Shown here piece by piece: positions 1 to 60,804 of a DNA stretch of 64,000 nucleotides. The position numbers were made by a program, and so were the translations under genes. The notes under the pieces are model-generated. The model was not told the DNA's origin, did no database searches, and saw only the letters and a list, made by a program, of their open reading frames with translations. Source of the DNA: Acidobacteriota bacterium (lineage in GTDB: Bacteria; Acidobacteriota; Terriglobia; Terriglobales; SCQP01); contig SCQP01000008.1 of the NCBI GenBank assembly GCA_004299485.1, forward strand, positions 132,341 through 196,340, written 5' to 3'. The number at the start of each line of letters is the position of its first letter. Position 1 is the stretch's first letter.

Positions 1-3073
<3,073 letters not shown>

Positions 3074-3089
3074 GAGGAGGTCTGTCGGT

Positions 3090-4202
3090 CTATCGGTCGG
3101 TCGGTCGGTCGGTCATTAGAGTCACGAAGTCGTGGAAGAGGTATTGGGAATCGTGGGGGCCGGGAGCGGCTTCGGGGTGGTATTGCACCGAAAACAGCGG
3201 CAGGGAGCGGTGGCGGAGACCTTCGAGGGTGCCGTCGTTGAGGTCGAAATGGGTGAGGTCGACGTCGCTGGCGCGGAGCGAGTCGGGATCGACGGCGAAG
3301 TTGTGGTTGTGGGCAGTGATTTCGATGCGGCCCGTGGGTTCATAGCGCACCGGATGGTTGCCACCATGATGACCGAACTTGAGCTTGTAGGTTTTGCCGC
3401 CGAGGGCGAGACCGATGAGCTGGTGGCCAAGACAGATTCCGAAGATGGGGACACGGCCCATCAAGCCACGGATGGTTTCGACGGCGTAAGTGCAGGGTTC
3501 GGGATCGCCGGGACCGTTGGAAAGGAAGACGCCATCGGGATGCAGCGCCAGTACGTCGGCGGCGGAGGTTTTCGCCGGAACGACGCGGACACGGCAGCCG
3601 TGCCCGGCAAGCTGGCGGGTGATGTTGCGCTTCATGCCATAGTCGAAGGCTACGACCAGGGGGGCGATCTCAAGAGACGACGGCGGAGGGCCGTCGTAGG
3701 GCGATTTGGTGCTGACCACCTGCGCCAGATCGGTGCCGGTCATCGGCGGGATGGCACGGGCGCGGGCCACGAGCGCATCGATCGATGCGCCGGCGGCGGG
3801 GGCGATGACGCCGCGCAGCACGCCTTGGGAACGCAAGTGACGGACCAGGGCGCGGGTATCGATACCGGCGAGCACCGGAATGCCGAAACGGTCGAGATAG
3901 TCCTGGCAGTCCTGCTGGCTGCGCCAGTTGCTGGTGATGGAAGAGAATTCGCGGACGATCAGGCCTTCGACGAAGGGGTGGTTGGCCTCGTCATCCTCGG
4001 CGGTGGTGCCGTAGTTGCCGATTTGTGGCGCGGTGAGGCAGACGATCTGGCCGGCGTAGGAGGGATCGGTGCAGATCTCCTGATAGCCGGTCATGGAGGT
4101 GTTGAAAACTACTTCGCCGGCGCCGGCTTTGGTTTTGGCGATTCCGCCGTGGCCAGTGCCCCGGAATACCCGGCCATCTTCTAGTGCCAGTAAGGCTTCC
4201 AT
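3090..4202 (-). CDS. carA: carbamoyl-phosphate synthase small (glutamine amidotransferase) subunit
   Basis: Track ORF 3090..4295. The conserved CarA N-terminus begins at the internal Met ([19 protein letters not shown].., ATG at 4202). GATase motifs are present ([18 protein letters not shown]). The upstream 31 codons read through a repeat element. Confidence 0.93.
3093..3112. repeat. (TCGG)5 tetranucleotide tandem repeat at the carA 3' end
   Basis: Five perfect TCGG units, read directly. On the coding strand this is (CCGA)5, encoding ..TDRPTDR*. Confidence 0.9.
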
Positions 4203-4215
4203 CGCCCGTCCTTCC

Positions 4216-4263
4216 CATTTGAATGGCGCGGGACCCCGCTCGGCTGCGCCGAGCGACCCGCTT
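4216..4263 (+). repeat. hairpin repeat family 2, copy C (REP-like)
   Basis: CATTTGAATGGCGCGGGACCC-CGCTCGGC-TGC-GCCGAGCG-ACCCGCTT. It shares flanks, loop and outer GCGGG/CCCGC pairing with the copies at 12792, 18521 and 60658. It lies in the carA/tricorn divergent intergenic region. Confidence 0.75.
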
Positions 4264-4397
4264 GCTCGCGGCAGAGCCGGGACCCGGTGGCCCATCCCTG
4301 CCGCTCGCGTGGATTATGATCCACCGGCGGTGTTTGCCCTTGGATCAAACCATTTTATCAGCTTTGGTTTAGAATTCTCGGGCCGGAGGAAATTTTC

Positions 4398-11629: not shown

Positions 11630-12895
11630 ATGTCATTCTCTATGCACTTCCCCAAATATTGCTTCTCGCCTTTGCCTGTGGCGCTAGGTATTTTTCTGAT
11701 TGCGGCCAGTGCCCCGGCGGCCGGGCAGACGCCGAGGGCAAGCTCGCGCCATGCGGTTCCGGCGCGTGCGGAAATTCGTGCCATTTACCTAACCGGGCCA
11801 ACGGCGGGCCGAGCCCTGGGCCGGCGCCTGGCGGAGCAGTGGCGGAGTGAAGGCGGAAATGCGGTGGTCTTTGACATCAAAGACGACAGCAGCCCGGTGA
11901 GCTTCAATGCGCCACTGGCGCTGGCCAGCCATCTACGGCATCCGTACATTGCGAATTTGCCCGCGTGGGTGGATTGGCTGCACGCGCACGGTCTGTACGC
12001 GATCGCGCGCATTGACGTATTTCTGGATGCGCGGCTGGTGCAAGCCCATCCAGAGTTGGCGGTGCGTTCGCGCGCGACGGGCGGCGTGTGGCGCGAGCAT
12101 GGCGCGGCTACGTGGATGGATCCGTCGCAACCGGCGGTCGAGGACTACAATCTGGCGCTGGCGAAGATTGTGGCGGCCTCGGGCGTCGATGAAGTGCAGT
12201 TTGACGCGATCCGTTTTCCGGTGGACGGGCATCAGGCGGATGCGCGGTTTGCCTATCAGGCGGCGCACCCGGAGGAGGCGCGCGCGGACTTCATCACCAG
12301 CTTTCTGCGGCGCGCGCAGCAGGAGCTGAAGCCCAGCGGCGTGCGGATTTCGATTGACGTGTACGGCATCACCGGCTGGCAACATTCCGTAGATCTGAAG
12401 GCGACGGGGCAAAATATCGCGGTGCTGGCGCACTACTGCGACGTCATCTGCCCGATGATCTATCCATCGCATTTCTTCGGGCATTTCGACGGCTTCGCCG
12501 ATCCCTCAGCGCACCCGGTGCATTTCATCGAGGCGGGGATGCAGAAGTTTCAAAAGCTGACGCGGGGCGACGGGGTGGTGATCCGTCCGTGGCTGCAGGC
12601 GTTCCACTGGCGTACGAAATCGTACGGACCGGAATACGTGCAGGAGCAGGTGGCGACGGAGCACGCCGCGGGCGGCGGGGGCTTCATGCTCTGGAACGCG
12701 GGCAATATCTACACCGCGCCGAATGCGGCGATGCCGGCAATGCTGGCTGCCGGGAGCAAATATTTCAGCGGCGGCTATCCCTACCCCGTGACATTGATTG
12801 GCGCGGGGCCCCGCGTGGCTGCGCCACGCGACCCGCTTAGGCCGGGCCGGACTGGGGGCCCGGGGCCCCAGCCCGGCCCGGCCCGCCGGCCGTAG
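11630..12895 (+). CDS. putative glycoside hydrolase-like protein (DUF4015/GHL family), secreted
   Basis: Signal-like N-terminus. IRAIYLTG..., VVFDIKDD, QFDAIRFP and YPSHF motifs match my memory of the DUF4015 TIM-barrel family. The last ~35 codons read into repeat copy A, so the true C-terminus is uncertain. Confidence 0.6.
   Translation: MSFSMHFPKYCFSPLPVALGIFLIAASAPAAGQTPRASSRHAVPARAEIRAIYLTGPTAGRALGRRLAEQWRSEGGNAVVFDIKDDSSPVSFNAPLALASHLRHPYIANLPAWVDWLHAHGLYAIARIDVFLDARLVQAHPELAVRSRATGGVWREHGAATWMDPSQPAVEDYNLALAKIVAASGVDEVQFDAIRFPVDGHQADARFAYQAAHPEEARADFITSFLRRAQQELKPSGVRISIDVYGITGWQHSVDLKATGQNIAVLAHYCDVICPMIYPSHFFGHFDGFADPSAHPVHFIEAGMQKFQKLTRGDGVVIRPWLQAFHWRTKSYGPEYVQEQVATEHAAGGGGFMLWNAGNIYTAPNAAMPAMLAAGSKYFSGGYPYPVTLIGAGPRVAAPRDPLRPGRTGGPGPQPGPARRP
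12792..12838 (+). repeat. hairpin repeat family 2, copy A (REP-like)
   Basis: CATTGATTGGCGCGGGGCC-CGCGTGGC-TGC-GCCACGCG-ACCCGCTT, followed by a long GC hairpin GGCCGGGCCGG...CCGGCCCGGCC. It lies between two convergent genes. Confidence 0.8.
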
Positions 12896-14117: not shown

Positions 14118-14154
14118 GGGAGCAGTGGGTTGATGCTAGCATGGAGTTGCTGTC

Positions 14155-14225
14155 GGGCGTTGGAGTTCGCCTTACCCAACCGCTCTAGCTCCTAAATGGG
14201 GCCGGAGCAGATGACTCCTACCAAA
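14155..14225 (+). ncRNA. fluoride riboswitch (crcB motif)
   Basis: GGCGUUGGAGUUCGCC...AACCGCU..GCUCC..GGAGC.AGAUGACUCCUACC. P1 is GGCG/CGCC. GGAGU pairs with the downstream ACUCC as a pseudoknot. The 3' GAUGACUCCUAC closely matches the Bacillus cereus crcB motif as I remember it. It sits directly upstream of crcB. Confidence 0.85.
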
Positions 14226-14247
14226 TCATTGGCAGGAGTTAAATTTT
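14215..14247 (+). terminator. riboswitch expression platform: terminator-like hairpin + U-tract that also covers the crcB SD
   Basis: CTCCTACCAA-ATCA-TTGGCAGGAG (10 bp, 1 mismatch) followed by TTAAATTTT. The 5' arm overlaps the pseudoknot strand. GGAG (14235-14238) is the likely SD for the TTG start at 14246. Confidence 0.7.
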
Positions 14248-17945: not shown

Positions 17946-18523
17946 GCGTTTGCCTCGGCGAGAAAGCGATTCCAAAGGCGCCCCACCTCGGCGGCGAGGG
18001 CGGCAAGGGTTCCCTTATTTGAAATCACAATATCAGCTTGCGCTAGTTTGCGTTCCTCGGGCAACTGATGCGCCATGCGGGCCAGAGCCTGCTCGCGGCT
18101 GGCGCCGGCCTTGCGCATGAAGCGCTGGATGCGCACTTCCGGATCGGCGGCCACAAGGATTACGTGATCGAAGCCCGTCAGCAGCCCGGCTTCGATCAAC
18201 AACGTGGCTTCGATGCCGGCGACCTTAGTTCCCTGCTGCTGCCATTGGTGCAACTGATTCCAGGCGCGGGCCATGATCAGCGGATGCAGGATTTGGTTGA
18301 GCTCGCCTAGAGCACCGGTGGCGCCGGGAGCAAACACGATGGCCGCCAATTGTGCGGGTTCCACGGTGCCAAAGCGGGCGAGCACGGCGTCGTGGGCCTC
18401 CGTTTGGAGCAGCTCGTGGCCGAGACGGTCGGCATCGACCACGGGACAGCCACGCTCGCGCAGCAGGGCGGAGACGGTGCTCTTGCCGCTGGACAGGCCG
18501 CCGGTTATCGCCAGCTTAAGCAT
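17942..18523 (-). CDS. coaE: dephospho-CoA kinase
   Basis: The internal Met gives MLKLAITGGLSSGKSTVSALLRERGCPVVDAD. The upstream 86 codons are Arg/Pro-rich read-through of repeat copy D. Confidence 0.88.
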   Translation of the reverse strand: MLKLAITGGLSSGKSTVSALLRERGCPVVDADRLGHELLQTEAHDAVLARFGTVEPAQLAAIVFAPGATGALGELNQILHPLIMARAWNQLHQWQQQGTKVAGIEATLLIEAGLLTGFDHVILVAADPEVRIQRFMRKAGASREQALARMAHQLPEERKLAQADIVISNKGTLAALAAEVGRLWNRFLAEANA

Positions 18524-18569
18524 TCTATTGATCGCGGGCGCCCAGCGCGGCTGCGCCGCGCGGCCCGCT
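18521..18569 (+). repeat. hairpin repeat family 2, copy D (diverged)
   Basis: CATTCTATTGATCGCGGGCGCCCA-GCGCGGC-TGC-GCCGCGC-GGCCCGCTC. The loop TGC and the outer GCGGG/CCCGC pairing are conserved. It lies in the folD-coaE intergenic region. Confidence 0.6.
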
Positions 18570-18651
18570 CTCCAAGGCGGCCAGCCCGCTACGCCGGGGC
18601 CCCCTACTCCCCGGCTTCGCTGCGTTGCGTTTCGTCGAGCGCAGCATAGCG

Positions 18652-22181: not shown

Positions 22182-23279
22182 TCAGTGCCGCAGGTCGCGG
22201 TGCGCCAGGGTGGGGCGGTAGCCCAGCTTGCGCAGCTCGCGCCGCAAGGCCTCGGCGATATAGACGGAGCGGTGGCGTCCGCCGGTGCATCCGACGGCGA
22301 TATTCAGATAGCTCTTGCCCTCCTCGATGTAATGGGGGATGAGGTAGGCCAGCAGATCGCGGATGCGGGTGAGGAACTCGGCGGTCTGGGGAAAGGAGCG
22401 GATGTATTCGGCCACCTTGCGGTCGCGGCCGTCATGCGCCTGCAGGGCGGGGATGTAGTTGGGATTGGGCAGGAAGCGGACATCAAAGACCAGATCGGCA
22501 TCGCTGGGGACGCCGCTGCGGAAGCCGAAACTGGTGACCGCGATCTGCAGGCTGGGAGCGAGACCGGCTTCAATGACGTGCTCGCGCAGGAAGGCGCGCA
22601 GCTCGTGGACGTTGAAGCGGGAGGTATCGACCACGAGGTCGGCGGCGGCGCGGATTTTCGCCAGGGCCTTGCGTTCCGCCTCGATGCCACGGCGGAGCTC
22701 CGTTTCGCCTTTGCGGCGGTCGCGGCCGTGGCTGCCATCGCGCTCGGCGAGGGGGTGGGGGCGGCGGGTTTCGCTGAAACGGCGCAGAATGGCTTCGTCA
22801 CTGGCTTCCAAAAAGAGCAGCGTCAGCCGCAGAGGTGAGTCGCGCAAGGTTTGCAGCAGGGCGGGCAGCGCCTCGAGGCGCTGGCCTTCACGGATATCGA
22901 CGACGGCGGCGACACGCTTCACTTCGCCGGAGCCGTCAAACGAGGCCTGGCGGACCAAATCGACGAAGGGACCGATCAGGCCGACGGGCAGATTATCGAC
23001 ACAGTAGTAGCCGGAATCCTCAAAGACTTTTTCGGCCGAACCCTTGCCGCTGCCACTCAGACCGGTAATGACTACGACGTGCAGATCCGATGGCGTTCGG
23101 GTTCGGTTGTGCGGCGCGCGGCGCCGCGAGTGCGGCCGCCGGCCCACTCCCTGTGCCCGCGCAACCGCGTGGCTCGCCACTTTTTGCCCTGGTCGCTCCC
23201 GTTGGTCGCTGGGAGTGCGGGCTTCGATTCCCGGCAGGGTCCGCCCGCTGGCGCTCCGGACTCCCCGAGGCGTCTTCAT
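22182..23279 (-). CDS. rapZ: RNase adapter protein RapZ (start codon uncertain; the ATG-initiated ORF includes a repeat-derived N-terminal extension)
   Basis: VVITGLSGSGKGSAEKVFEDSGYYCVDNLP and the C-terminal GCTGGRHRSV motif. The Walker A begins near residue 72 of the ORF, versus near the N-terminus in typical RapZ as I recall. The only ATG (23279) overlaps the rpoN stop as ATGA. Confidence 0.85.
   Translation of the reverse strand: MKTPRGVRSASGRTLPGIEARTPSDQRERPGQKVASHAVARAQGVGRRPHSRRRAPHNRTRTPSDLHVVVITGLSGSGKGSAEKVFEDSGYYCVDNLPVGLIGPFVDLVRQASFDGSGEVKRVAAVVDIREGQRLEALPALLQTLRDSPLRLTLLFLEASDEAILRRFSETRRPHPLAERDGSHGRDRRKGETELRRGIEAERKALAKIRAAADLVVDTSRFNVHELRAFLREHVIEAGLAPSLQIAVTSFGFRSGVPSDADLVFDVRFLPNPNYIPALQAHDGRDRKVAEYIRSFPQTAEFLTRIRDLLAYLIPHYIEEGKSYLNIAVGCTGGRHRSVYIAEALRRELRKLGYRPTLAHRDLRH
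23169..23264 (+). repeat. 110-nt repeat family 1, copy 1 (right end diverged)
   Basis: GTGGCTCGCCACTTTTTGCCCTGGTCGCTCCCGTTGGTCGCTGGGAGTGCGGGCTTCGATTCCCGGCAGGGTCCGCCCGCTGGCGCTCCGGACTCC. It matches copies 2-4 over about 96 nt. Confidence 0.85.
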
Positions 23280-28845: not shown

Positions 28846-31290
28846 CTATTCCTGGCGCAGGGCGCGGAGGGGGTCGGTGCGGGAGGCGCGGAGGGCCGGG
28901 ATCAGGCTGGCGAGGAGAGTGATGAGGGCCAGGAGGACTGCGGCGGCGATATAGCTGATGGGGTCGGCGGGGCTCATGCCATAGAGCAACGAGGTCATGA
29001 AGTGAGTGGCGAGGGCGGCCAGAATGACGCCGGCCAGAATGCCCCAGGCGGCGAGGCGCAGGCCCTGGCTCACGACCAGGCGCAGGAGATTCGGGGCGTC
29101 GGCTCCCAGTGCCATGCGGATGCCGTATTCACGGGCGCGGCGGGCGACGGTCGAGGCCATGACGCCGTAGAGGCCGACGAGGGCGAGCAGCAGGGCGAGA
29201 ATGCCAAAGCCGCTGAGCAGGACGCCGGACATCTTCGCTGTGAACAGCGGTGACTGCATGAACTGAGCGCCGGTTTCGACGTTGCTGCTGAGCATCTGCG
29301 GGTCGGCGTTTTGCAGAACGCGGCGGACCGGAGTGAGAAACGCCTGCGGGTTGCCGGCGACGTGGATCATCATCGTGGCGGGCATAGCGATGGTGGTGAG
29401 GGGATAAAAGTACGGACGGGGAGATTCGTCGAGGGAATTGTATTTGCCGTCGGCGGCGACGCCAACGATGGTCATGGGCGTGCCGCCCTGGCCGTTGCGC
29501 AAGAGCGTGTGGCCGACGGCATCACCGTGCGGCCAGAACTGCTGCGCCAAGGTCTGGTTGATGACGACGAGTTGGCGGCCGGAGGCCAAGTCGGCATCGG
29601 TAAAGCCGCGGCCGCTGACCAACGGCGTGCCGGACGCCTTGAAGAAATCCGGCGAAACTTGGGTGTACTCGGAGCGGAAGCCTTGCGCATGCGGCGGCGG
29701 CGCCATGCCCTCGGGCAGCACGAAAGTATCGGACTCGCCGACTTGCAGCGGCGGCTGCGTGGTGTAGCCGGCCGCGCTGACGCCGGGGACGGCGCTGACG
29801 CCAGCGCGCAGGTTTTTCAGAAACGTCTCCGCATCCTTTCCGGTGTGGCCGAGGGACTGCGGGTTAAGGGTGGTGACGACGATCAGGTGCTGGGTGTCGA
29901 AGCCAGGATTGATGGCGCGGGCACGGGCGAGCGAGCGCAGGCAAAGAGCCGCGCCCACCAGCACCATCATGCAGAGGGCGATCTGGGCCATGATGAAGCC
30001 GCTGCGGGTGCGGGAGCGAACGGCGCCGGAGCCGGGCGTGCCGTCTTTGATGTAATCGAGAATGCGCACACGCGCGGCTTGCAGTGCCGGCAGCAGGCCG
30101 AAGAGGATGCCTACCGCGAGAGCCAGGGCAAAAGTGAACCAAACGACGGTACTGCTCAGTGCTGGAGGCGCGGCAATGGGCGTATCGGCGGGTACGAGAT
30201 GCAGCAACAGTGGGTGCAAGCCTGCGGCGATCACCAGCGCGAGGCCGCCGGCGATGACGGCCAGCACCACGCTGTGGATCAGGCCCTGGCGGATGAGACG
30301 GCCGCGGCCGGCGCCCAGGGCGGCGCGCAAAGCCCACTCACGCTGGCGGCCGAGAGCTTGCGCCAGGAGCACGAGGGCGGCATTGGCGCAAGCAATGAGG
30401 AGGACGAGGCCGACGACAATTTCCAGCAGCAGAATGCCGCCGGTGGCGAAGCCGCGGAAGGGCAGCGGCACGGAGCCGAGAGGCGCGGCGAGACCGCCGA
30501 AGGTGGGCAGCTCGCCATTGGGGTATTCGCGGTCGAGGTGGTGCTGTACGGCATCAAGCTGGGCACTGGCGGCGGCGACGGTGACGCCAGGCTTGAGGCG
30601 GCCGACGGCGAACAGGCTGCGGTTGCCACGGCTTTCTAGAATCCCGGGCAAGCCCAGACGGTCGGACATGGTGACCGGCGCCCAGAAATTGCACTCGACA
30701 GCATGGAAGAGACCCTGGAAACCACGTGGGGCAACGCCAATAACCACGAAGGGCATGCCGTTCAGCGAAACCGTGCGGCCGAGTACGCTGCCGTCGCCAC
30801 CGAATTGCCGCTGCCAGGTGGCCCAGGAGAGCACGACCACGGGGCTGGATCCCTTGACGGCGGCTTCGTTTGGCAAAAACCAGCGGCCGAGAGCCGGGTG
30901 CAGACCGAGGACGTCGAAGTAATTACCCGAGACCAACTGGCCGGTCCAGGGCATGGGCGAAGCGCCGGGCGAAGGAATGACGTTGGGTTGGCTGACGGGA
31001 TTGTAGATAAGCAGGCCGGAGAGGCTGGTGGCTTGCTTTTCGTAGGCGAGATAGTCGAGGTAGCTGAGCGGGTAGTCGCCATTCAGCGCCGCGCGCGGCG
31101 AGGGATCGTGGGTGTAAACCTCGACCAGACGGTCGGGACTGGCGACGGCTGGTTTTTGCAGCAGCAGGCCGTTGGCGACGCTGAATATGGTGGCGTTGAC
31201 GCCGAGGCCCAGGGCGAGGGAGAGCACGGCGATGAGCGACAGCCAGGGGCTTTTGGCGATCAGACGAAGGGCATAGCGAAGATCACGCAT
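28846..31290 (-). CDS. ADOP-family duplicated FtsX/MacB-type permease
   Basis: 814 aa. It has the canonical MRDLRYALRLIAKSPWLSLIAVLSLALGLGVNATIF opening and two FtsX-like halves. Confidence 0.88.
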   Translation of the reverse strand: MRDLRYALRLIAKSPWLSLIAVLSLALGLGVNATIFSVANGLLLQKPAVASPDRLVEVYTHDPSPRAALNGDYPLSYLDYLAYEKQATSLSGLLIYNPVSQPNVIPSPGASPMPWTGQLVSGNYFDVLGLHPALGRWFLPNEAAVKGSSPVVVLSWATWQRQFGGDGSVLGRTVSLNGMPFVVIGVAPRGFQGLFHAVECNFWAPVTMSDRLGLPGILESRGNRSLFAVGRLKPGVTVAAASAQLDAVQHHLDREYPNGELPTFGGLAAPLGSVPLPFRGFATGGILLLEIVVGLVLLIACANAALVLLAQALGRQREWALRAALGAGRGRLIRQGLIHSVVLAVIAGGLALVIAAGLHPLLLHLVPADTPIAAPPALSSTVVWFTFALALAVGILFGLLPALQAARVRILDYIKDGTPGSGAVRSRTRSGFIMAQIALCMMVLVGAALCLRSLARARAINPGFDTQHLIVVTTLNPQSLGHTGKDAETFLKNLRAGVSAVPGVSAAGYTTQPPLQVGESDTFVLPEGMAPPPHAQGFRSEYTQVSPDFFKASGTPLVSGRGFTDADLASGRQLVVINQTLAQQFWPHGDAVGHTLLRNGQGGTPMTIVGVAADGKYNSLDESPRPYFYPLTTIAMPATMMIHVAGNPQAFLTPVRRVLQNADPQMLSSNVETGAQFMQSPLFTAKMSGVLLSGFGILALLLALVGLYGVMASTVARRAREYGIRMALGADAPNLLRLVVSQGLRLAAWGILAGVILAALATHFMTSLLYGMSPADPISYIAAAVLLALITLLASLIPALRASRTDPLRALRQE

Positions 31291-31296
31291 ATCCGA

Positions 31297-33744
31297 TTAC
31301 TCCTGACGCAGCGCAGGCAGGGGGTCGACGCGGGCGGCGCGCAAAGCGGGGATGAGGCTGGCGAGGAGGGTCACGGCGATGAGGAGCGCCACCGCAGCGA
31401 AGTAGCTGACCGGATCGGCCGGGCTCATGCCGTAAAGGAGTGAGGAGAGATAACGGGTGAGGAGCGCAGCCAGAACGACTCCGGCAAGGGTACCCCAGAG
31501 GGCGAGGCGGAGGCCCTGGCCGAGCACAAGGCGCAGCAAATTTCCAGAGCCGGCGCCCAGGGCCATGCGAATGCCGTATTCGCGGGTGCGGCGCGTGACC
31601 GTCGTGGCCATGACGCCATAAAGACCGACAATGGCGAGCAGCAGCGCCAAGATGCCGAAACTGCCGAGGAGCACGCTTGTCATACGCGCCGTGTAGAGCG
31701 GCAGTTCCATAAAGGCAGCGCCGGTCTGGATATTGGCGCTGAGCAAGTTGGGATCGAGCAATTGCAACTGCTTGCGGATGGCCGGCAAAAAGCTGGCCGG
31801 CGAGCCGGCGACGTGGATCATGAGCGAGCCGGGGGTGGCGATGGGAGTGAGCTCATACAGGTACGGGCGGGGGGATTCGTTCAGGTTGTGGTACTTGCCG
31901 TTGGCAGCGACGCCAACAATGGTCGCGGGCGGATGCGTGCTGTCGCCGGGGAAGGTGAACTCGTGCCCAACGGCGCCGCCCTGCGGCCAGAAATGGCGCG
32001 CGAGATTTTCGTTGATCACGATGAGGTGACGGCCGGCGGCGAGGTCGGCTTCGGTGAAGCCGCGGCCCGCCAGCAGCGGCGTACCGCTGGCGCGGAAATA
32101 ATTGGGCGAGACGCTGGTGACCTCGACGCGATAACCTTCGCCGTGAGTGCCAGGGGATGCGCCGGGGGGCAGGACCATGGCATCGGATTCGCCGGTCTGG
32201 AGCGGCACTTCGACGATCCAGGCGGCCGCGGTGACGCCGGGCACGCGATCGACCGCCTGACGAACCTGAAGCAGGAATTGATGCGCTGCGGGACCGTTAT
32301 GGCCGAGCGACTGCGGGCTGACATCATGGACGAGGACCAGGTGCTGGGTGTCAAAGCCGGGATTGATGGCGCGGGCGCGGGCGAGCGAGCGCAGGCACAG
32401 CGCCGCGCCGACCAGCACCACGACGCAGAGCGCCATCTGGGCGATGATGAAGCCGCTGCGCAGGCGCGAGCGCACGCCGCCGGAGCCGGGCGTACCGTCT
32501 TTGATGTAGTCGAGGACACGCAGGCGCGTGGCTTGCAGGGCAGGAGCGAGTCCAAACAGAATGCCGGCCACGAGCGCCAGAGCGAACGTAAAGGCGATGA
32601 GCGAGGCGCTCAAACCCGTGGGCGGCGCCAGCGGAAAGCCCGAGGGCCGCAGGCGGATCAAGAGCGGCCAGAGCAACTCGGCAATGCCGAGACCGAGGCC
32701 GCCGGCGATGAGGGCGAGAAGGACGCTGTGCACCAGGCCTTGGCGGAGAAGGCGGCGGCGGCTGGCGCCCAGCGCGGCGCGCAGCGCCCACTCGCGCTGA
32801 CGGCCGAGCGCCTGCGCCAGCAGCACCAGCGCGGTGTTGGTGCACGCGATCAGCAGCACCAGGCCGACAACGACTTCGAGCAGCAGAACAATGGAACTGG
32901 CCGAGCCGCGGAAGGGCTTGGGAATCGCCTCCAAGGGCACGGCGAGTCCGCCGAACGTTGCTAGTTCAGCCTTGGGGTATTGCTGATCGAGCTGGTGCTG
33001 GATCATGTCCAGCTCGGTCGAGGCCGCGGCGAGGGTCACGCCGGGGTTGAGACGGCCGACGGCGAGCAGCGCGCGGTGGGCACGCTGTTCGATGACGCCA
33101 GGTTCGCCGAGATGATCGGACATGGTGACCGGCGCCCAGAAATTGCACTCGACGCCGCCAAACAGGCCATGAAAACTCTCCGGGGCGACGCCAATGACGC
33201 TGTAGGGAGCGCCGTTCATTTGAACCGTGCGGCCCAGGATGCCGGGCAAACCGCCGAACTGGGTTTTCCAGATGGCGAAGGAGAGCACGACGACGGGGCT
33301 GGCGTCATTCACTGTATCTTCGGCGGAGACGAACCAGCGGCCGAGGGCCGGGTGGAGACCGAGGACATGGAAGTAGCCGTCAGTCACAAGCTCACCGGTC
33401 CAGGGCTGGGTTGACGCGCCGGGCGCGGTGACCACATTGACCTGGTTGAGCGGGCTGTAGGCGAGCAAGCCGGAAAGGCTGTGAGCGCGATGGAGGAAGC
33501 TGAGGTAGTCGGGATAGCTGAGTGGATAGTCGCCATTGAGCGCGGCGCGGGGGTCGGGGTCGTGGGTGTAGATTTCGACCAGACGCGAGGGATTGGCCAC
33601 CGGCGGCTTCTGCAGCAGCAGACGGTTGGCGAAGGCGAAGATGGTGGTGTTGGCGCCCAGGCCCAGCGCCAGCGAGAGCACCGCAACCAGCGACAGCCAG
33701 GGGCTTTTCGCGATCAGACGCAACGCATAGCGCAGGTCTCGCAT
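31297..33744 (-). CDS. ADOP-family duplicated FtsX/MacB-type permease (tandem paralog)
   Basis: 815 aa. It has the same N-terminal 20 residues as its neighbour and lies 6 nt upstream of it. Confidence 0.88.
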   Translation of the reverse strand: MRDLRYALRLIAKSPWLSLVAVLSLALGLGANTTIFAFANRLLLQKPPVANPSRLVEIYTHDPDPRAALNGDYPLSYPDYLSFLHRAHSLSGLLAYSPLNQVNVVTAPGASTQPWTGELVTDGYFHVLGLHPALGRWFVSAEDTVNDASPVVVLSFAIWKTQFGGLPGILGRTVQMNGAPYSVIGVAPESFHGLFGGVECNFWAPVTMSDHLGEPGVIEQRAHRALLAVGRLNPGVTLAAASTELDMIQHQLDQQYPKAELATFGGLAVPLEAIPKPFRGSASSIVLLLEVVVGLVLLIACTNTALVLLAQALGRQREWALRAALGASRRRLLRQGLVHSVLLALIAGGLGLGIAELLWPLLIRLRPSGFPLAPPTGLSASLIAFTFALALVAGILFGLAPALQATRLRVLDYIKDGTPGSGGVRSRLRSGFIIAQMALCVVVLVGAALCLRSLARARAINPGFDTQHLVLVHDVSPQSLGHNGPAAHQFLLQVRQAVDRVPGVTAAAWIVEVPLQTGESDAMVLPPGASPGTHGEGYRVEVTSVSPNYFRASGTPLLAGRGFTEADLAAGRHLIVINENLARHFWPQGGAVGHEFTFPGDSTHPPATIVGVAANGKYHNLNESPRPYLYELTPIATPGSLMIHVAGSPASFLPAIRKQLQLLDPNLLSANIQTGAAFMELPLYTARMTSVLLGSFGILALLLAIVGLYGVMATTVTRRTREYGIRMALGAGSGNLLRLVLGQGLRLALWGTLAGVVLAALLTRYLSSLLYGMSPADPVSYFAAVALLIAVTLLASLIPALRAARVDPLPALRQE

Positions 33745-45835: not shown

Positions 45836-46390
45836 TTATGGTGTCGGCCAGGGCAGCTTCTGCCACTGAGGAATTGTCTGATCCTTTCCGCGTACGGGCC
45901 CAACTGCATCGGTGTGGCGCAGCTTCCGAATTCTACAGGCACTTTCCACCGCCGAATGGCAGAACGCCAGAGAAGGCTGAGAGCAAAGTAGCCACAATGG
46001 AAAGGAGTTGCTTCGGCGGTCGAAGCAGTGCTTCAGCGTGTATTGTTCCCCCTTAGTGCAGAACGCGGACTCGCAGTCTTCACACAGGACGTACTCCTTC
46101 AGTTGGCGGACCGTCGTGACTGCGCCTCTGGAGCCAAATACGACTAGCGCATGCTGATCGTTGCCCCACAGTCTGTGGCTCGCCACTTTTTGCCCTGGTC
46201 GCTCCCGTTGGTCGCTTGGAGTGCGGGCTTCGATTCCCGGCAGGGTCCGCCCGCTGGCGCTCAGGGCTCCTCCAAGCTGCCGCCACCTGTACGCGCCAGT
46301 CGGCAGAAAGTGGCTCAGGCAGAGCTTACGGTGCTGTCGGCAAAGCGGGCAGGTCCCCATCGTTGGTTTTTTGTATGGCTTTGCCGGCAT
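45836..46390 (-). pseudogene. Cys-rich (CxxC...CxxC) ORF carrying an internal copy of the 110-nt repeat; probably decayed
   Basis: MPAKPYKKPTMGTCPLCRQHRKLCLSHFLPTGAYR-[repeat-encoded 37 aa]-..NDQHALVVFGSRGAVTTVRQLKEYVLCEDCESAFCTKGEQY.. The C-terminal third is low-quality sequence. Confidence 0.45.
46175..46284 (+). repeat. 110-nt repeat family 1, copy 2
   Basis: Full-length copy GTGGCTCGCCAC...AAGCTGCCGCC. It differs at 1-2 positions from copies 3 and 4. Confidence 0.9.
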
Positions 46391-46483: not shown

Positions 46484-46888
46484 TCAGCCCGAGGGCGCGA
46501 GAAAGACGTCGGCGGAGAGGCTGAAGCGGGTGCTCAGGCGGCGAAGCTGTTCCAGCGTGAGTTTGCGCTGGCCGGCAAGAAACATGGACACTGCGCTCTC
46601 GGACCCAAACTGAGGAATCAGATCGCGTTGCCTGAGGTGCTGCTGCGCCATGAGAAACCGCACGATCGATACGGGATCAGCCGCCGGGATGGGATAGTGA
46701 GCTCGCTCGTAGCGCTCCACGAGCAGGGTCAGCAGTTCGACTGCCTGTGCTTCCGCCCGAGACGGATGCTCCAGGGCGGTGAGCTGGAATAGTGCGTCCG
46801 TGTACGACTCGAGCTCTTGATCGTTATGAATGACACGCGGGGCGCCATGCGCGATCATCTCTGCGGGATTGGCAAGAACTGATTTCAT
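46484..46888 (-). CDS. higA: HigA-type antitoxin / HTH regulator (partner of the HigB-family toxin)
   Basis: 134 aa. The C-terminal HTH-like segment is LIPQFGSESAVSMFLAGQRKLTLEQLRRLSTRFSLSADVFL. It lies immediately downstream of the HigB-family gene. Confidence 0.7.
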   Translation of the reverse strand: MKSVLANPAEMIAHGAPRVIHNDQELESYTDALFQLTALEHPSRAEAQAVELLTLLVERYERAHYPIPAADPVSIVRFLMAQQHLRQRDLIPQFGSESAVSMFLAGQRKLTLEQLRRLSTRFSLSADVFLAPSG

Positions 46889-47361
46889 TGTGGCTCGCCA
46901 CTTTTTGCCCTGGTCGCTCCCGTTGGTCGCTTGGAGTGCGGGCTTCGATTCCCGGCAGGGCCCGCCCGCTGGCGCTCAGGGCTCCTCCAAGCTGCCGCCG
47001 GATGCGCAAACCTCCTGTCCCAATTCCCAGGGTTGTCATACTCCTTGTGCGTCAAGAACGAGCGAATGTACACGTGGCCCTCGGTCTGCCTCCCGTCGAT
47101 CGTCTTCGCGTAATGAATGACGGTGATCAGCCTGTACCGGTTGCGCCGGACATTGAAGATTACATAACCATTGACATAATCGACGTCCTTAAACATATCT
47201 CGCACTTCGGCAAAATTGCGCCAGCGGACCGCCTCAACGATGGTCGTCCAAGCTTCCACTTCACTCGCTGCATCGGGGTGCTGCTTCATGGCCTCGCGCA
47301 GATGCCTGCGGGTGACGAGATGCACTTCCTTACCGTACTTCACGAGTCGTGAAGTTGTCAA
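46885..47361 (-). CDS. higB: HigB-family mRNA interferase toxin (PF09907-like) with a repeat-derived C-terminal tail
   Basis: ..HLVTRRHLREAMKQHPDAASEVEAWTTIVEAVRWRNFAEVRDMFKDVDYVNGYVIFNVRRNRYRLITVIHYAKT..VYIRSFLTHKEYD. The last ~40 residues (..AAAWRSPERQRAGPAGNRSPHSKRPTGATRAKSGEPQ*) are encoded by the repeat. Confidence 0.75.
   Translation of the reverse strand: MTTSRLVKYGKEVHLVTRRHLREAMKQHPDAASEVEAWTTIVEAVRWRNFAEVRDMFKDVDYVNGYVIFNVRRNRYRLITVIHYAKTIDGRQTEGHVYIRSFLTHKEYDNPGNWDRRFAHPAAAWRSPERQRAGPAGNRSPHSKRPTGATRAKSGEPQ
46890..46999 (+). repeat. 110-nt repeat family 1, copy 3
   Basis: Full-length copy. It begins 1 nt from the higA ATG (CAT-T-GTGGCTCGCC on the + strand). Confidence 0.9.
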
Positions 47362-50811: not shown

Positions 50812-50929
50812 GGCGGCAGATCCCCTCTCACAGGTCACAGAGTGACCGAGCCTAGGCCCAAAAAAGAGCTGGCGAAGGAACTATAGCGCAGAGGGGAGTG
50901 GCAGAGCTATAGATGCAGGAAATTTCATA

Positions 50930-51039
50930 GTGGCTCGCCACTTTTTGCCCTGGTCGCTCCCTTTGGTCGCTTGGAGTGCGGGCTTCGATTCCCGGCAGGG
51001 TCCGCCCGCTGGCGCTCCGGGCTCCTCCAAGCTGCCGCC
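50930..51039 (+). repeat. 110-nt repeat family 1, copy 4
   Basis: Full-length copy, intergenic between the bacilliredoxin stop and the BNR gene start. Confidence 0.9.
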
Positions 51040-60648: not shown

Positions 60649-60657
60649 CTAGAGCCA

Positions 60658-60704
60658 CATTGACTGGCGCGGGGCCTGGCGTGGCTGCGCCACGCCACCC
60701 GCTT
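60658..60704 (+). repeat. hairpin repeat family 2, copy B (REP-like)
   Basis: CATTGACTGGCGCGGGGCCT-GGCGTGGC-TGC-GCCACGCC-ACCCGCTT, followed by the GC hairpin GGGGGCC..GGCCCCC. Confidence 0.8.
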
Positions 60705-60804
60705 GACGCTCGGCCGGGCCGGGGGCCCACGGTGCCAACGGCGCGGCCCCCACGTGACGCGAGCGCGCTGCCAGGCCTTGAACCGCCGCGCAGGGCGTCG
60801 CCAT

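Follow-up and report, generated by a model that had tools for sequence, protein, structure and literature searches.

A dispersed mosaic hairpin element of Terriglobales whose orientation follows replication-linked strand asymmetry

Introduction

What is a hairpin of about 47 nt that recurs within one stretch of a bacterial chromosome, always on the same strand: a DNA repeat or a small structured RNA? This question is raised by a 64,000-nt segment of an Acidobacteriota genome of the order Terriglobales (contig SCQP01000008.1, positions 132,341 to 196,340 of the forward strand; the whole segment is hereafter referred to as the window), for which an initial annotation made from the letters alone had reported four such copies. 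Here, we describe the hairpin as the 5′ end of a larger mosaic element. It is very probably a dispersed, insertion-derived DNA repeat and not an RNA gene. As the best explanation of the four hairpins, we consider that they belong to a non-autonomous mosaic element resembling repetitive extragenic palindromic sequences (REPs) and bacterial interspersed mosaic elements (BIMEs), which may move in single-stranded form on the lagging-strand template.

Few soil bacteria are more abundant than the Acidobacteria, yet their genomes are known mostly from metagenome-assembled genomes (MAGs), and their repeats are almost unstudied. At the density found here, four copies per 64 kb, such repeats could break assemblies. 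They also distort gene calls, four open reading frames (ORFs) of the window being extended or provided with new tails, and they mark a clade. A directional element that follows a replication-linked asymmetry is, in addition, a test case for the lagging-strand spread of REP-like repeats as single-stranded DNA outside Proteobacteria, and a handle for finding the responsible enzyme. If ordinary, it is still a new REP/BIME analogue in a new phylum-level setting.

Results and discussion

The hairpin is the 5′ end of a mosaic element

Four copies of the hairpin, which we call module A, are present in the window, all on the + strand, at 4216–4263, 12791–12838, 18524–18570, and 60657–60704. A degenerate pattern gave 3 matches, as compared with 0.01 expected. 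A hidden Markov model (HMM) of the whole element, searched against the window with nhmmer --max, detected the four copies at E ≤ 3e-4, with the next match at E = 0.78. Sixty-one members of the family served to build a covariance model of the 49-nt unit, which, with the filters off, detected the four window copies at 41.6–73.6 bits (E ≤ 3e-9), with the next match at E = 0.6; the copies found outside the window came from a pattern scan (see below). The number of copies in the window and their confinement to one strand are therefore exact, and the four same-strand copies of the initial annotation stand with slightly refined coordinates.

Module A begins with a foot (ATTGAY followed by nGGC). Its outer stem has 5 bp (GCGGG/CCCGC) and is separated by an asymmetric internal loop (about 4 nt 5′, 1 nt 3′) from an inner stem of 7–9 bp that is closed by a TGC loop. 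In other subfamilies, the foot reads AATGT or ATTGC, then nGGC. Similarity between copies begins at the foot. What follows module A had been taken for a second hairpin of unrelated sequence, and this proved to be incorrect: the alignment of the flanks revealed a module B that is homologous between loci and forms a long hairpin, the apex of which reads GGGGNCCC..GCCCCA, and the family HMM, which was drawn from 27 full elements of 191–244 nt, aligns through module B in all four copies of the window. Many copies extend further, via a module C, to a terminal hairpin F that ends in ..GGCGCGaCCCCCGCG(A), and past that end no similarity between loci is seen. About 200 nt of collinear similarity is common to different loci, and the full form of the element, with four hairpin modules in the order A-B-C-F, measures about 190–245 nt. 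The initial annotation had considered that the motif might be the terminal part of a larger known insertion sequence (IS) or miniature inverted-repeat transposable element (MITE). The 47-nt motif is indeed the end of a larger repeat, but this repeat is an undescribed mosaic element and no known IS or MITE.

When the loci were searched with nhmmer, 42 matches fell into the class ABCF, 48 into AB, 35 into A, 14 into CF, and 11 into F. Most copies are partial, consisting of A, of A+B, or of internal deletions that retain both ends, and in many short forms a 5′ fragment of A is fused directly to C or F with both termini preserved. Head-to-tail arrays also occur, either of A+B with a period of 91–95 nt or of A alone with a period of 46 nt (loci L011, L057, L077, and L080). 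The two ends of the element are complementary over only about 7 nt (CGCGGGG...CCCCGCG). Several subfamilies exist: the variants differ between MAGs, at least two of them coexist, and the minor subfamily to which copy 3 of the window belongs was also found in L021, L053, L088, L093, and L109. The idea that this subfamily represents a conserved site before coaE was ruled out, since its other members adjoin neither coaE nor folD.

Two further observations concern the arrays and the modules. At one orthologous site of two related MAGs (L081, 546–759; L026, 2757–3640), the arrays measure about 214 nt and about 880 nt, respectively; because their lengths differ so greatly at a shared site, arrays grow or shrink in place. 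A small unrelated hairpin element (TTCGCCCTGCTGGAGCTGCGCAGGGCGAA) is nested in the TGC loop of A or in the stem of B (L042, second copy, L043, and L026; L036, L063, L072, and L115), and here repeats have inserted into repeats.

Distribution of the family

A pattern that fixed only the outer stem and the loop-closing bases was scanned against 185,579 species genomes, and at least 120 loci matched. Among the matches listed, at least 108 further copies were found in at least 97 loci and 18 assemblies, and 17 of these assemblies are MAGs of Terriglobales/Acidobacteria. One full element (L033) lies on a 3.4-kb contig, JBOHMN010000013.1, that is binned as Acetobacteraceae and derives from a sample common to several Terriglobales MAGs; this placing is most likely a binning error rather than a transfer.

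The other 23 loci (in Streptomyces, Rhodopseudomonas, and others of unrelated high-GC phyla) raise the possibility that the family merely consists of the GC-rich palindromes that a genome of 65% G+C produces by chance, as a loose pattern matches there as well. These loci, however, look like chance matches themselves, being without the foot and the hairpin, while the true loci share the collinear similarity described above. Together with the excess of pattern matches in the window and covariance-model E-values down to 1e-17, this leaves next to no probability for the chance reading, which is already refuted.

No viral contig matched the pattern. In Rfam 15, no relevant match was obtained for the window at gathering scores or for four copy-rich loci at E ≤ 1, only a tRNA, a fluoride riboswitch, and spurious microRNA matches having appeared; no published description of the element was found in the literature searched. 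Among the matches listed, we regard the repeats as a previously undescribed, clade-specific, non-coding, interspersed, and intergenic family of one group of soil Acidobacteria (Terriglobales), to be likened to the REP/BIME and IS200/IS605-derived kinds.

Insertion into spacers and gene ends

The modules of the four copies and their sites in the window are as follows.

4216..4263, + strand: copy 1, module A (69.1 bits, E = 9e-17; fold as single-stranded DNA, −13.7 kcal/mol), with the foot CATTTGAATGGC, the GCGGG/CCCGC outer stem, a 4:1 internal loop, an 8-bp inner stem, and the TGC loop; in the spacer between the divergent carA (−) and tricorn-type protease (+) genes, about 20 nt upstream of the true carA ATG (at about 4196, − strand)
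4264..4309, + strand: copy 1, diverged module B hairpin GCGGCAG...CTGCCGC (HMM positions 2–86 aligned to 4219–4300)
12791..12838, + strand: copy 2, module A (73.6 bits, E = 5e-18), within the 3′ end of the DUF4015 ORF, where the 3′ ends of the convergent DUF4015 (+) and MFS (−) genes overlap
12839..12883, + strand: copy 2, module B, long hairpin GGCCGGGCCGG..CCGGCCCGGCC with the apex GGGGGCCC..GCCCCA (HMM alignment)
18524..18570, + strand: copy 3, module A of a distinct subfamily (..TTGATC GCGGGCGCCC..GGCCCGCT CTC; 41.6 bits, E = 3e-9); the CAT directly 5′ of it, at 18521–18523, is the coaE start codon on the − strand
18571..18651, + strand: copy 3, downstream part, a B-like hairpin GCCGGGG..CCCCGGC and a second hairpin GCTGCG..CGCAGC (HMM alignment)
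60657..60704, + strand: copy 4, module A (69.2 bits, E = 8e-17; fold as single-stranded DNA computed), 9 nt past the stop codon of an alpha/beta hydrolase gene and upstream of nrdJ, both genes on the + strand
60705..60755, + strand: copy 4, 5′ half of module B joined to the 3′ half of the terminal module F (..GCCCACGGTGCCAACGGCGCGGCCCCCACG)

Compared with the full elements L029 and L041, copy 4 is an internal-deletion form (A, the 5′ half of B, and the 3′ half of F) in which both ends of the element are kept. The gene contexts were assigned with Pfam and agree with those given before, namely, a divergent region, a convergent pair, an intra-operon spacer, and the region upstream of nrdJ. The statement that neighboring ORFs run into the copies was likewise borne out. 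The longest carA and coaE ORFs start beyond the copies (the coaE product of NCBI has 193 aa, as against 279 aa for the ORF), and the DUF4015 and MFS ORFs both terminate inside copy 2, whose module B is the source of C-terminal codons for DUF4015 on the + strand and for MFS on the − strand.

A comparison with relatives clarified that two of the four sites in the window are empty in related genomes. One is the spacer between folD and coaE, both on the − strand, which measures 128 nt in the window and is wholly occupied by the modules of copy 3. In contigs whose coaE protein is 88% identical, this spacer has 55 nt, and only the distal part of the element is kept there; it has 1 nt at 85% coaE identity and 5 nt at 66% coaE identity, the latter group including the MAG JBOGKK, which carries the family elsewhere. 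In three relatives, then, folD and coaE are 1–5 nt apart. The other site is the convergent pair: in L211 (JBOGKL) and L213, the DUF4015 and MFS genes overlap by 20 and 65 nt without the element. The native DUF4015 protein ends about 20 codons past the conserved GGYPY, whereas in the window 34 element codons follow GGYPYPV, and MFS gains about 17 element-derived codons. In a 99% identical strain (L212), the insertion is present as in the window. An all-against-all search of the flanks of the fetched loci yielded one shared site, that of L081 and L026, in which both sides are filled, and no clean empty site. From the window sites, it is shown that the element has inserted into intergenic spacers and gene ends, with new C-terminal tails of DUF4015 and MFS and a 128-nt folD-coaE spacer as side-effects.

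Hairpins are kept by compensatory change

Within the window, three stem positions of the four copies have changed in a compensatory manner, one of these changes being common to two copies; the "at least four" of the initial annotation was thus somewhat too high. The wider family gives a clearer picture. In 51 distinct 36-nt hairpins, 6 of the 9 pairs of the inner helix are doubly changed, in 49 cells, and the covariation score is 0.202 as compared with 0.066 for shuffled alignments, none of 500 shuffles reaching the observed value. When the partners were slid by 1–3 columns, the score was at most 0.072. The five outer pairs are invariant in these hairpins, which is partly imposed by the search pattern. 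The copies found with the HMM are free of that constraint, and in them even the pairs that close the loop have undergone compensated changes (GCC TGC GGC, for instance). A few double changes were also seen, across 17 full elements, in hairpin F and in a helix formed over a long range by CCGGGGG and CCCCCGG. The constraint on the hairpin and the covarying inner stem proposed earlier are supported in the wider family: the hairpins are kept by compensatory change. The asymmetric internal loop of module A is conserved too, which indicates that the structure is not simply being perfected.

As single-stranded DNA, the module A units of the window fold at −13.7 to −17.3 kcal/mol, and a full element folds at −74.7 kcal/mol (z = −4.7). 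The RNA folds of the window copies with their flanks gave z values of −0.1 to −3.3.

Orientation ignores transcription

The positions of the copies relative to genes were determined for 58 copies or clusters with clear neighbors. Eighteen of them (31%) lie between convergent genes, as compared with a background of 16%, and 10 (17%) between divergent genes, for which the background is also 16%. The remaining 30 lie between co-directional genes, 15 in the sense and 15 in the antisense orientation. The coding lengths on the same strand as the element and on the opposite strand are 244 and 254 kb. The equal numbers of sense and antisense copies and the similar coding lengths lead to the conclusion that the orientation ignores transcription, as had been proposed from the four window copies.

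These data bear on the possibility that the element is a structured RNA, that is, a multi-copy small RNA gene or a cis-acting terminator, mRNA stabilizer, or leader, in which the covariation would stem from the folding of a transcript. The covarying stem, the partly doubly changed long-range helices of the full element, the folding of a full copy, which is significantly better than that of shuffled sequences (as single-stranded DNA), and the excess between convergent genes (31% against 16%) would all suit such an RNA, and co-orientation with replication, described below, is also typical of highly expressed genes. Against this, the absence of any Rfam match even at E ≤ 1, of a conserved promoter 5′ of the unit, and of a U-run after the hairpins of the four window copies, in which TT or TA separates hairpin A from GC-rich sequence, has to be set, as have the even split between sense and antisense in tandem genes and a share between divergent genes that equals the background. 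Moreover, the 3′ modules are missing from half of the copies, there are many with internal deletions or with inserts nested in the loop of A, and two window sites are empty in relatives. We regard a structured RNA as very unlikely. An intrinsic terminator in particular is at odds with the missing U-run, the 15 sense and 15 antisense copies, and the 10 copies between divergent genes. Of the two options that the initial annotation had left side by side, the REP-like repeat is supported, the family being multi-copy, intergenic, limited to one clade, and endowed with a covarying stem, while the small RNA is not, given the lack of an Rfam family and a promoter, the random orientation relative to genes, and the damaged copies.

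Orientation follows the strand asymmetry of replication

The + strand of the window, which carries all four top strands, has a GC skew of +0.105 that is positive for genes of both strands. At third codon positions, with the coding-strand effect removed, its skew is +0.22, yet the − strand carries about 60% of the coding sequence; the genes of this clade do not favor the G-rich strand.

In the loci of the family, the top strand of the element lies on the G-rich strand in 60 of 84 cases (p = 1e-4) when the skew is measured at third codon positions and corrected for the gene strand. The estimator without the correction term gives 44 of 61 (p = 7e-4); among loci with a strong skew, the figure is 34 of 42. 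Neighboring non-tandem copies are on the same strand in 32 cases and on opposite strands in 11 (p = 0.002). The orientation follows the replication-linked strand asymmetry rather than transcription, and the strand bias that the initial annotation had thought worth relating to the direction of replication is present. As a general rule, the template of the lagging strand is the G-rich strand.

An element with polarity of this kind might be maintained by the host for a chromosomal role, either as a site where gyrase or a nucleoid protein binds or cleaves, as in the BIMEs of E. coli, or as a polar signal of replication or segregation, with mobility being secondary or extinct. Besides the tie to the replichore, the persistence of the family, with subfamilies in common, across many diverged MAGs and the conservation of the asymmetric internal loop and the outer stem would be expected of such a role. 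The occupancy of orthologous sites nevertheless differs among relatives, the copies are heterogeneous and often damaged, they disrupt gene ends, and the polarity of about 75% is far from near-absolute. A host-maintained element is unlikely in our judgment; it is, however, compatible with the mobile-element reading, as the REPs of E. coli are both.

Mobility and the search for a transposase

That the element moves as single-stranded DNA is suggested by the conjunction of footed hairpins, the lack of duplication at its ends, the retention of the ends in deletion forms, the mosaic and array structures, the insertion polymorphism, and the replichore-linked polarity. The ends deserve attention here. 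In 30 complete copies, target-site duplication was not detected: the longest common string of the flanks averaged 3.63 nt, as compared with 3.53 nt in shuffled pairs. A classical MITE, mobilized in double-stranded form by a DDE transposase through recognition of terminal inverted repeats (TIRs), would have the size of about 200 nt found here, which is typical of MITEs, as well as short complementary ends and internal-deletion derivatives that keep both of them. This explanation has little probability: in addition to the missing duplication, the complementarity of the ends covers only those 7 or so GC-rich nucleotides, half of the copies (A and A+B) have no 3′ end, a model with symmetric TIRs does not predict an orientation bias relative to strand skew, and about 900 kb of sequence contained no autonomous partner.

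Movement as single-stranded DNA could proceed in the following manner. The top strand, which is G-rich and would be the lagging-strand template at the fork, would fold into foot-plus-hairpin structures, and the element would spread as single-stranded DNA. An HUH/Y1 transposase supplied in trans would recognize, cut, and rejoin these structures, as in IS200/IS605 and in REP-RAYT systems. Tandem arrays and module shuffling might arise from alternative cleavage sites, slippage, and recombination. The top strand of IS200/IS605 elements is recognized via subterminal hairpins and a short guide sequence, and RAYTs treat REPs alike. IS200/IS605 use the top strand only and act at the lagging-strand template (PMC3333891, PMC5027513). 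In Acidobacteria, Y1 transposases are flanked by atypical hairpin repeats (PMC6006769, PMC3733652); those of class 3 have repeats with the foot CnGA, of which Solibacter harbors about 600 copies (PMC6006769), and TIRYTs are present in Terriglobus, Koribacter, Acidobacterium, and Granulicella (PMC3733652). By analogy with these systems, a single-strand/HUH route may tentatively be proposed, with a chance that we put at slightly under even.

Several points weigh against this interpretation. No Y1 transposase was found in the window, nor in some 900 kb of sequence flanking 108 copies, when 9339 ORFs were searched by phmmer and hmmsearch with 14 RAYT/TIRYT sequences, which had been rebuilt from the supplement of PMC3733652. 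A regular expression for the HUH and Y motifs found nothing in the window and the copy loci. No copy of the element accompanies any of 83 Terriglobales Y1 loci of the TIRYT type (80 from metagenomes and 3 from NCBI/ENA), a different hairpin repeat flanking them instead. A long element with A and F ends and an internal transposase gene was not found in the 900 kb either; only two pairs of A and F ends lie 0.4–6 kb apart, one enclosing an ammonium transporter and the other a DUF4238 protein and four ORFs without a Pfam match. A RAYT or IS200-like Y1 partner, at which the initial annotation had hinted, was thus sought in the window, the 900 kb of loci, and the 83 Y1 loci, and none is linked to the element; MAGs often lose IS copies, so that these negatives are weak. 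The foot is also atypical: TTGAY, AATGT, or TTGC is neither the GTAG or CGTC of REPs and BIMEs with their RAYTs nor the published CnGA of the class 3 TnpA-Y1 repeats. As for strand, the bias of about 72–81% is not absolute, the identification of the G-rich strand with the lagging-strand template derives from the general rule, and the share of coding sequence on the G-rich strand in the element loci, 46%, is too weak to confirm that rule here. G-T and A-C intermediates in the stems are about equally frequent (13 and 10), and the folding strand is not readable from them, while quasi-palindrome template-switch repair could yield compensation without selection. Finally, MAG data and a pattern scan with its 120 or more loci make up a biased sample.

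The Y1 genes (PF01797) of the Terriglobales TIRYT type were located in L208 at 1462–1703, in L209 at 2251–2501 and 2974–3299, and in L210 at 2200–2501 and 2965–3070. The hairpin repeat on both sides of them (..GGTGCCCCATCCTTTC...GAAAGGGTGGGGTATCG..) is unrelated to the module A-F element.

A more far-reaching idea, which we consider quite unlikely, would see more than junk DNA in the full-length form of about 200 nt, which has two closed domains and long-range helices: an undescribed single-strand mobile system of Terriglobales could have its working part here. It might be the DNA substrate of a new class of HUH transposase with a TTGAY-type foot, or else a transposase-less carrier of a guide-RNA-like scaffold such as IS200/IS605 elements bear at their right ends, on which a nuclease from another locus would draw in trans.

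Relation to known repeats

Setting aside the wider idea and returning to the REP/BIME-like mobile element, we compared it with four kinds of known systems. It works like REP/BIME and IS200/IS605-derived elements, yet it fails the defining features of each.

With the REP/BIME-RAYT systems of Proteobacteria, it has in common a short imperfect GC-rich palindrome after a conserved short 5′ foot, a likely high copy number (four in the window), an intergenic location with enrichment between convergent genes, several subfamilies per genome, mosaic arrays of different modules, and compensated stems with a conserved mismatch or internal loop. Apart from the foot, it differs in that inverted doublets, as in REPs and REPINs, are not formed, the units being directional and arranged head to tail; in that the full unit comprises four hairpins and about 200 nt; and in that its orientation is biased relative to strand skew, with no RAYT found beside any copy.

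IS200/IS605 elements and their PATE-type derivatives resemble it in having hairpins at both ends on the same (top) strand (A at the 5′ end and F at the 3′ end), no TIRs of note, no target-site duplication, internal deletions that keep the ends, and a top strand that lies preferentially on the presumed lagging-strand template. A TTGAT/TTGAC motif is placed directly 5′ of the left end of the element, and TTGAT is the target of ISDra2. In contrast to these derivatives, the left and right hairpins of the element are dissimilar, many copies have no right end, and no tnpA/tnpB partner is known for it. Furthermore, its TTGAY foot seems to travel with the element, as tandem copies have it between them and the empty folD-coaE site lacks it.

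The class 3 TnpA-Y1 and TIRYT systems of Acidobacteria and Planctomycetes likewise involve hairpin repeats without a GT[AG]G foot, and in the same phylum. Their repeats reach up to about 600 copies in Solibacter and have been described as lying between IS and REPtron (Quentin 2018, PMC6006769; Di Nocera 2013, PMC3733652). The TIRYT genes that we examined differ in being flanked by another repeat (..CCCATCCTTTC..GAAAGGGTGGGG..).

The BOX, Correia, ERIC, and RUP repeats are similar in being modular, non-coding, hairpin-forming, and intergenic, with a variable complement of modules and effects on neighboring genes, but the element is unrelated to them in sequence. Elements of these types have TIRs, and several have insertion-site duplications (TA for Correia). 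They are not known for a polarity linked to replication.

Other features of the window

A second dispersed repeat of about 115 nt (GTGGCTCGCCACTTTTTGCCCTGG...GGGCTTCGATTCCCGGCAGGG...), unrelated to the module A-F element, was found in the window, its four copies being 84–97% identical and without a match in Rfam at E ≤ 1. This repeat also occurs in the Terriglobales loci L016, L044, L046, L075, L078, L206, and L207, and two of its copies start where a minus-strand gene may have its ATG (..TTTCAT). Its positions and those of two other features are listed below.

23161–23278, + strand: copy of the 115-nt repeat
46167–46284, + strand: copy of the 115-nt repeat
46882–46999, + strand: copy of the 115-nt repeat
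50922–51039, + strand: copy of the 115-nt repeat
14147–14227, + strand: fluoride riboswitch (RF01734 of Rfam, 38 bits), closely followed by a small + strand ORF
28846–31290 and 31297–33744, − strand: adjacent paralogues of about 815 aa

In the syntenic locus L211, the ORF at the position downstream of the riboswitch is a CRCB (PF02537) gene. The two adjacent paralogues are 70–83% identical at the DNA level over most of their length and represent a tandem gene duplication.

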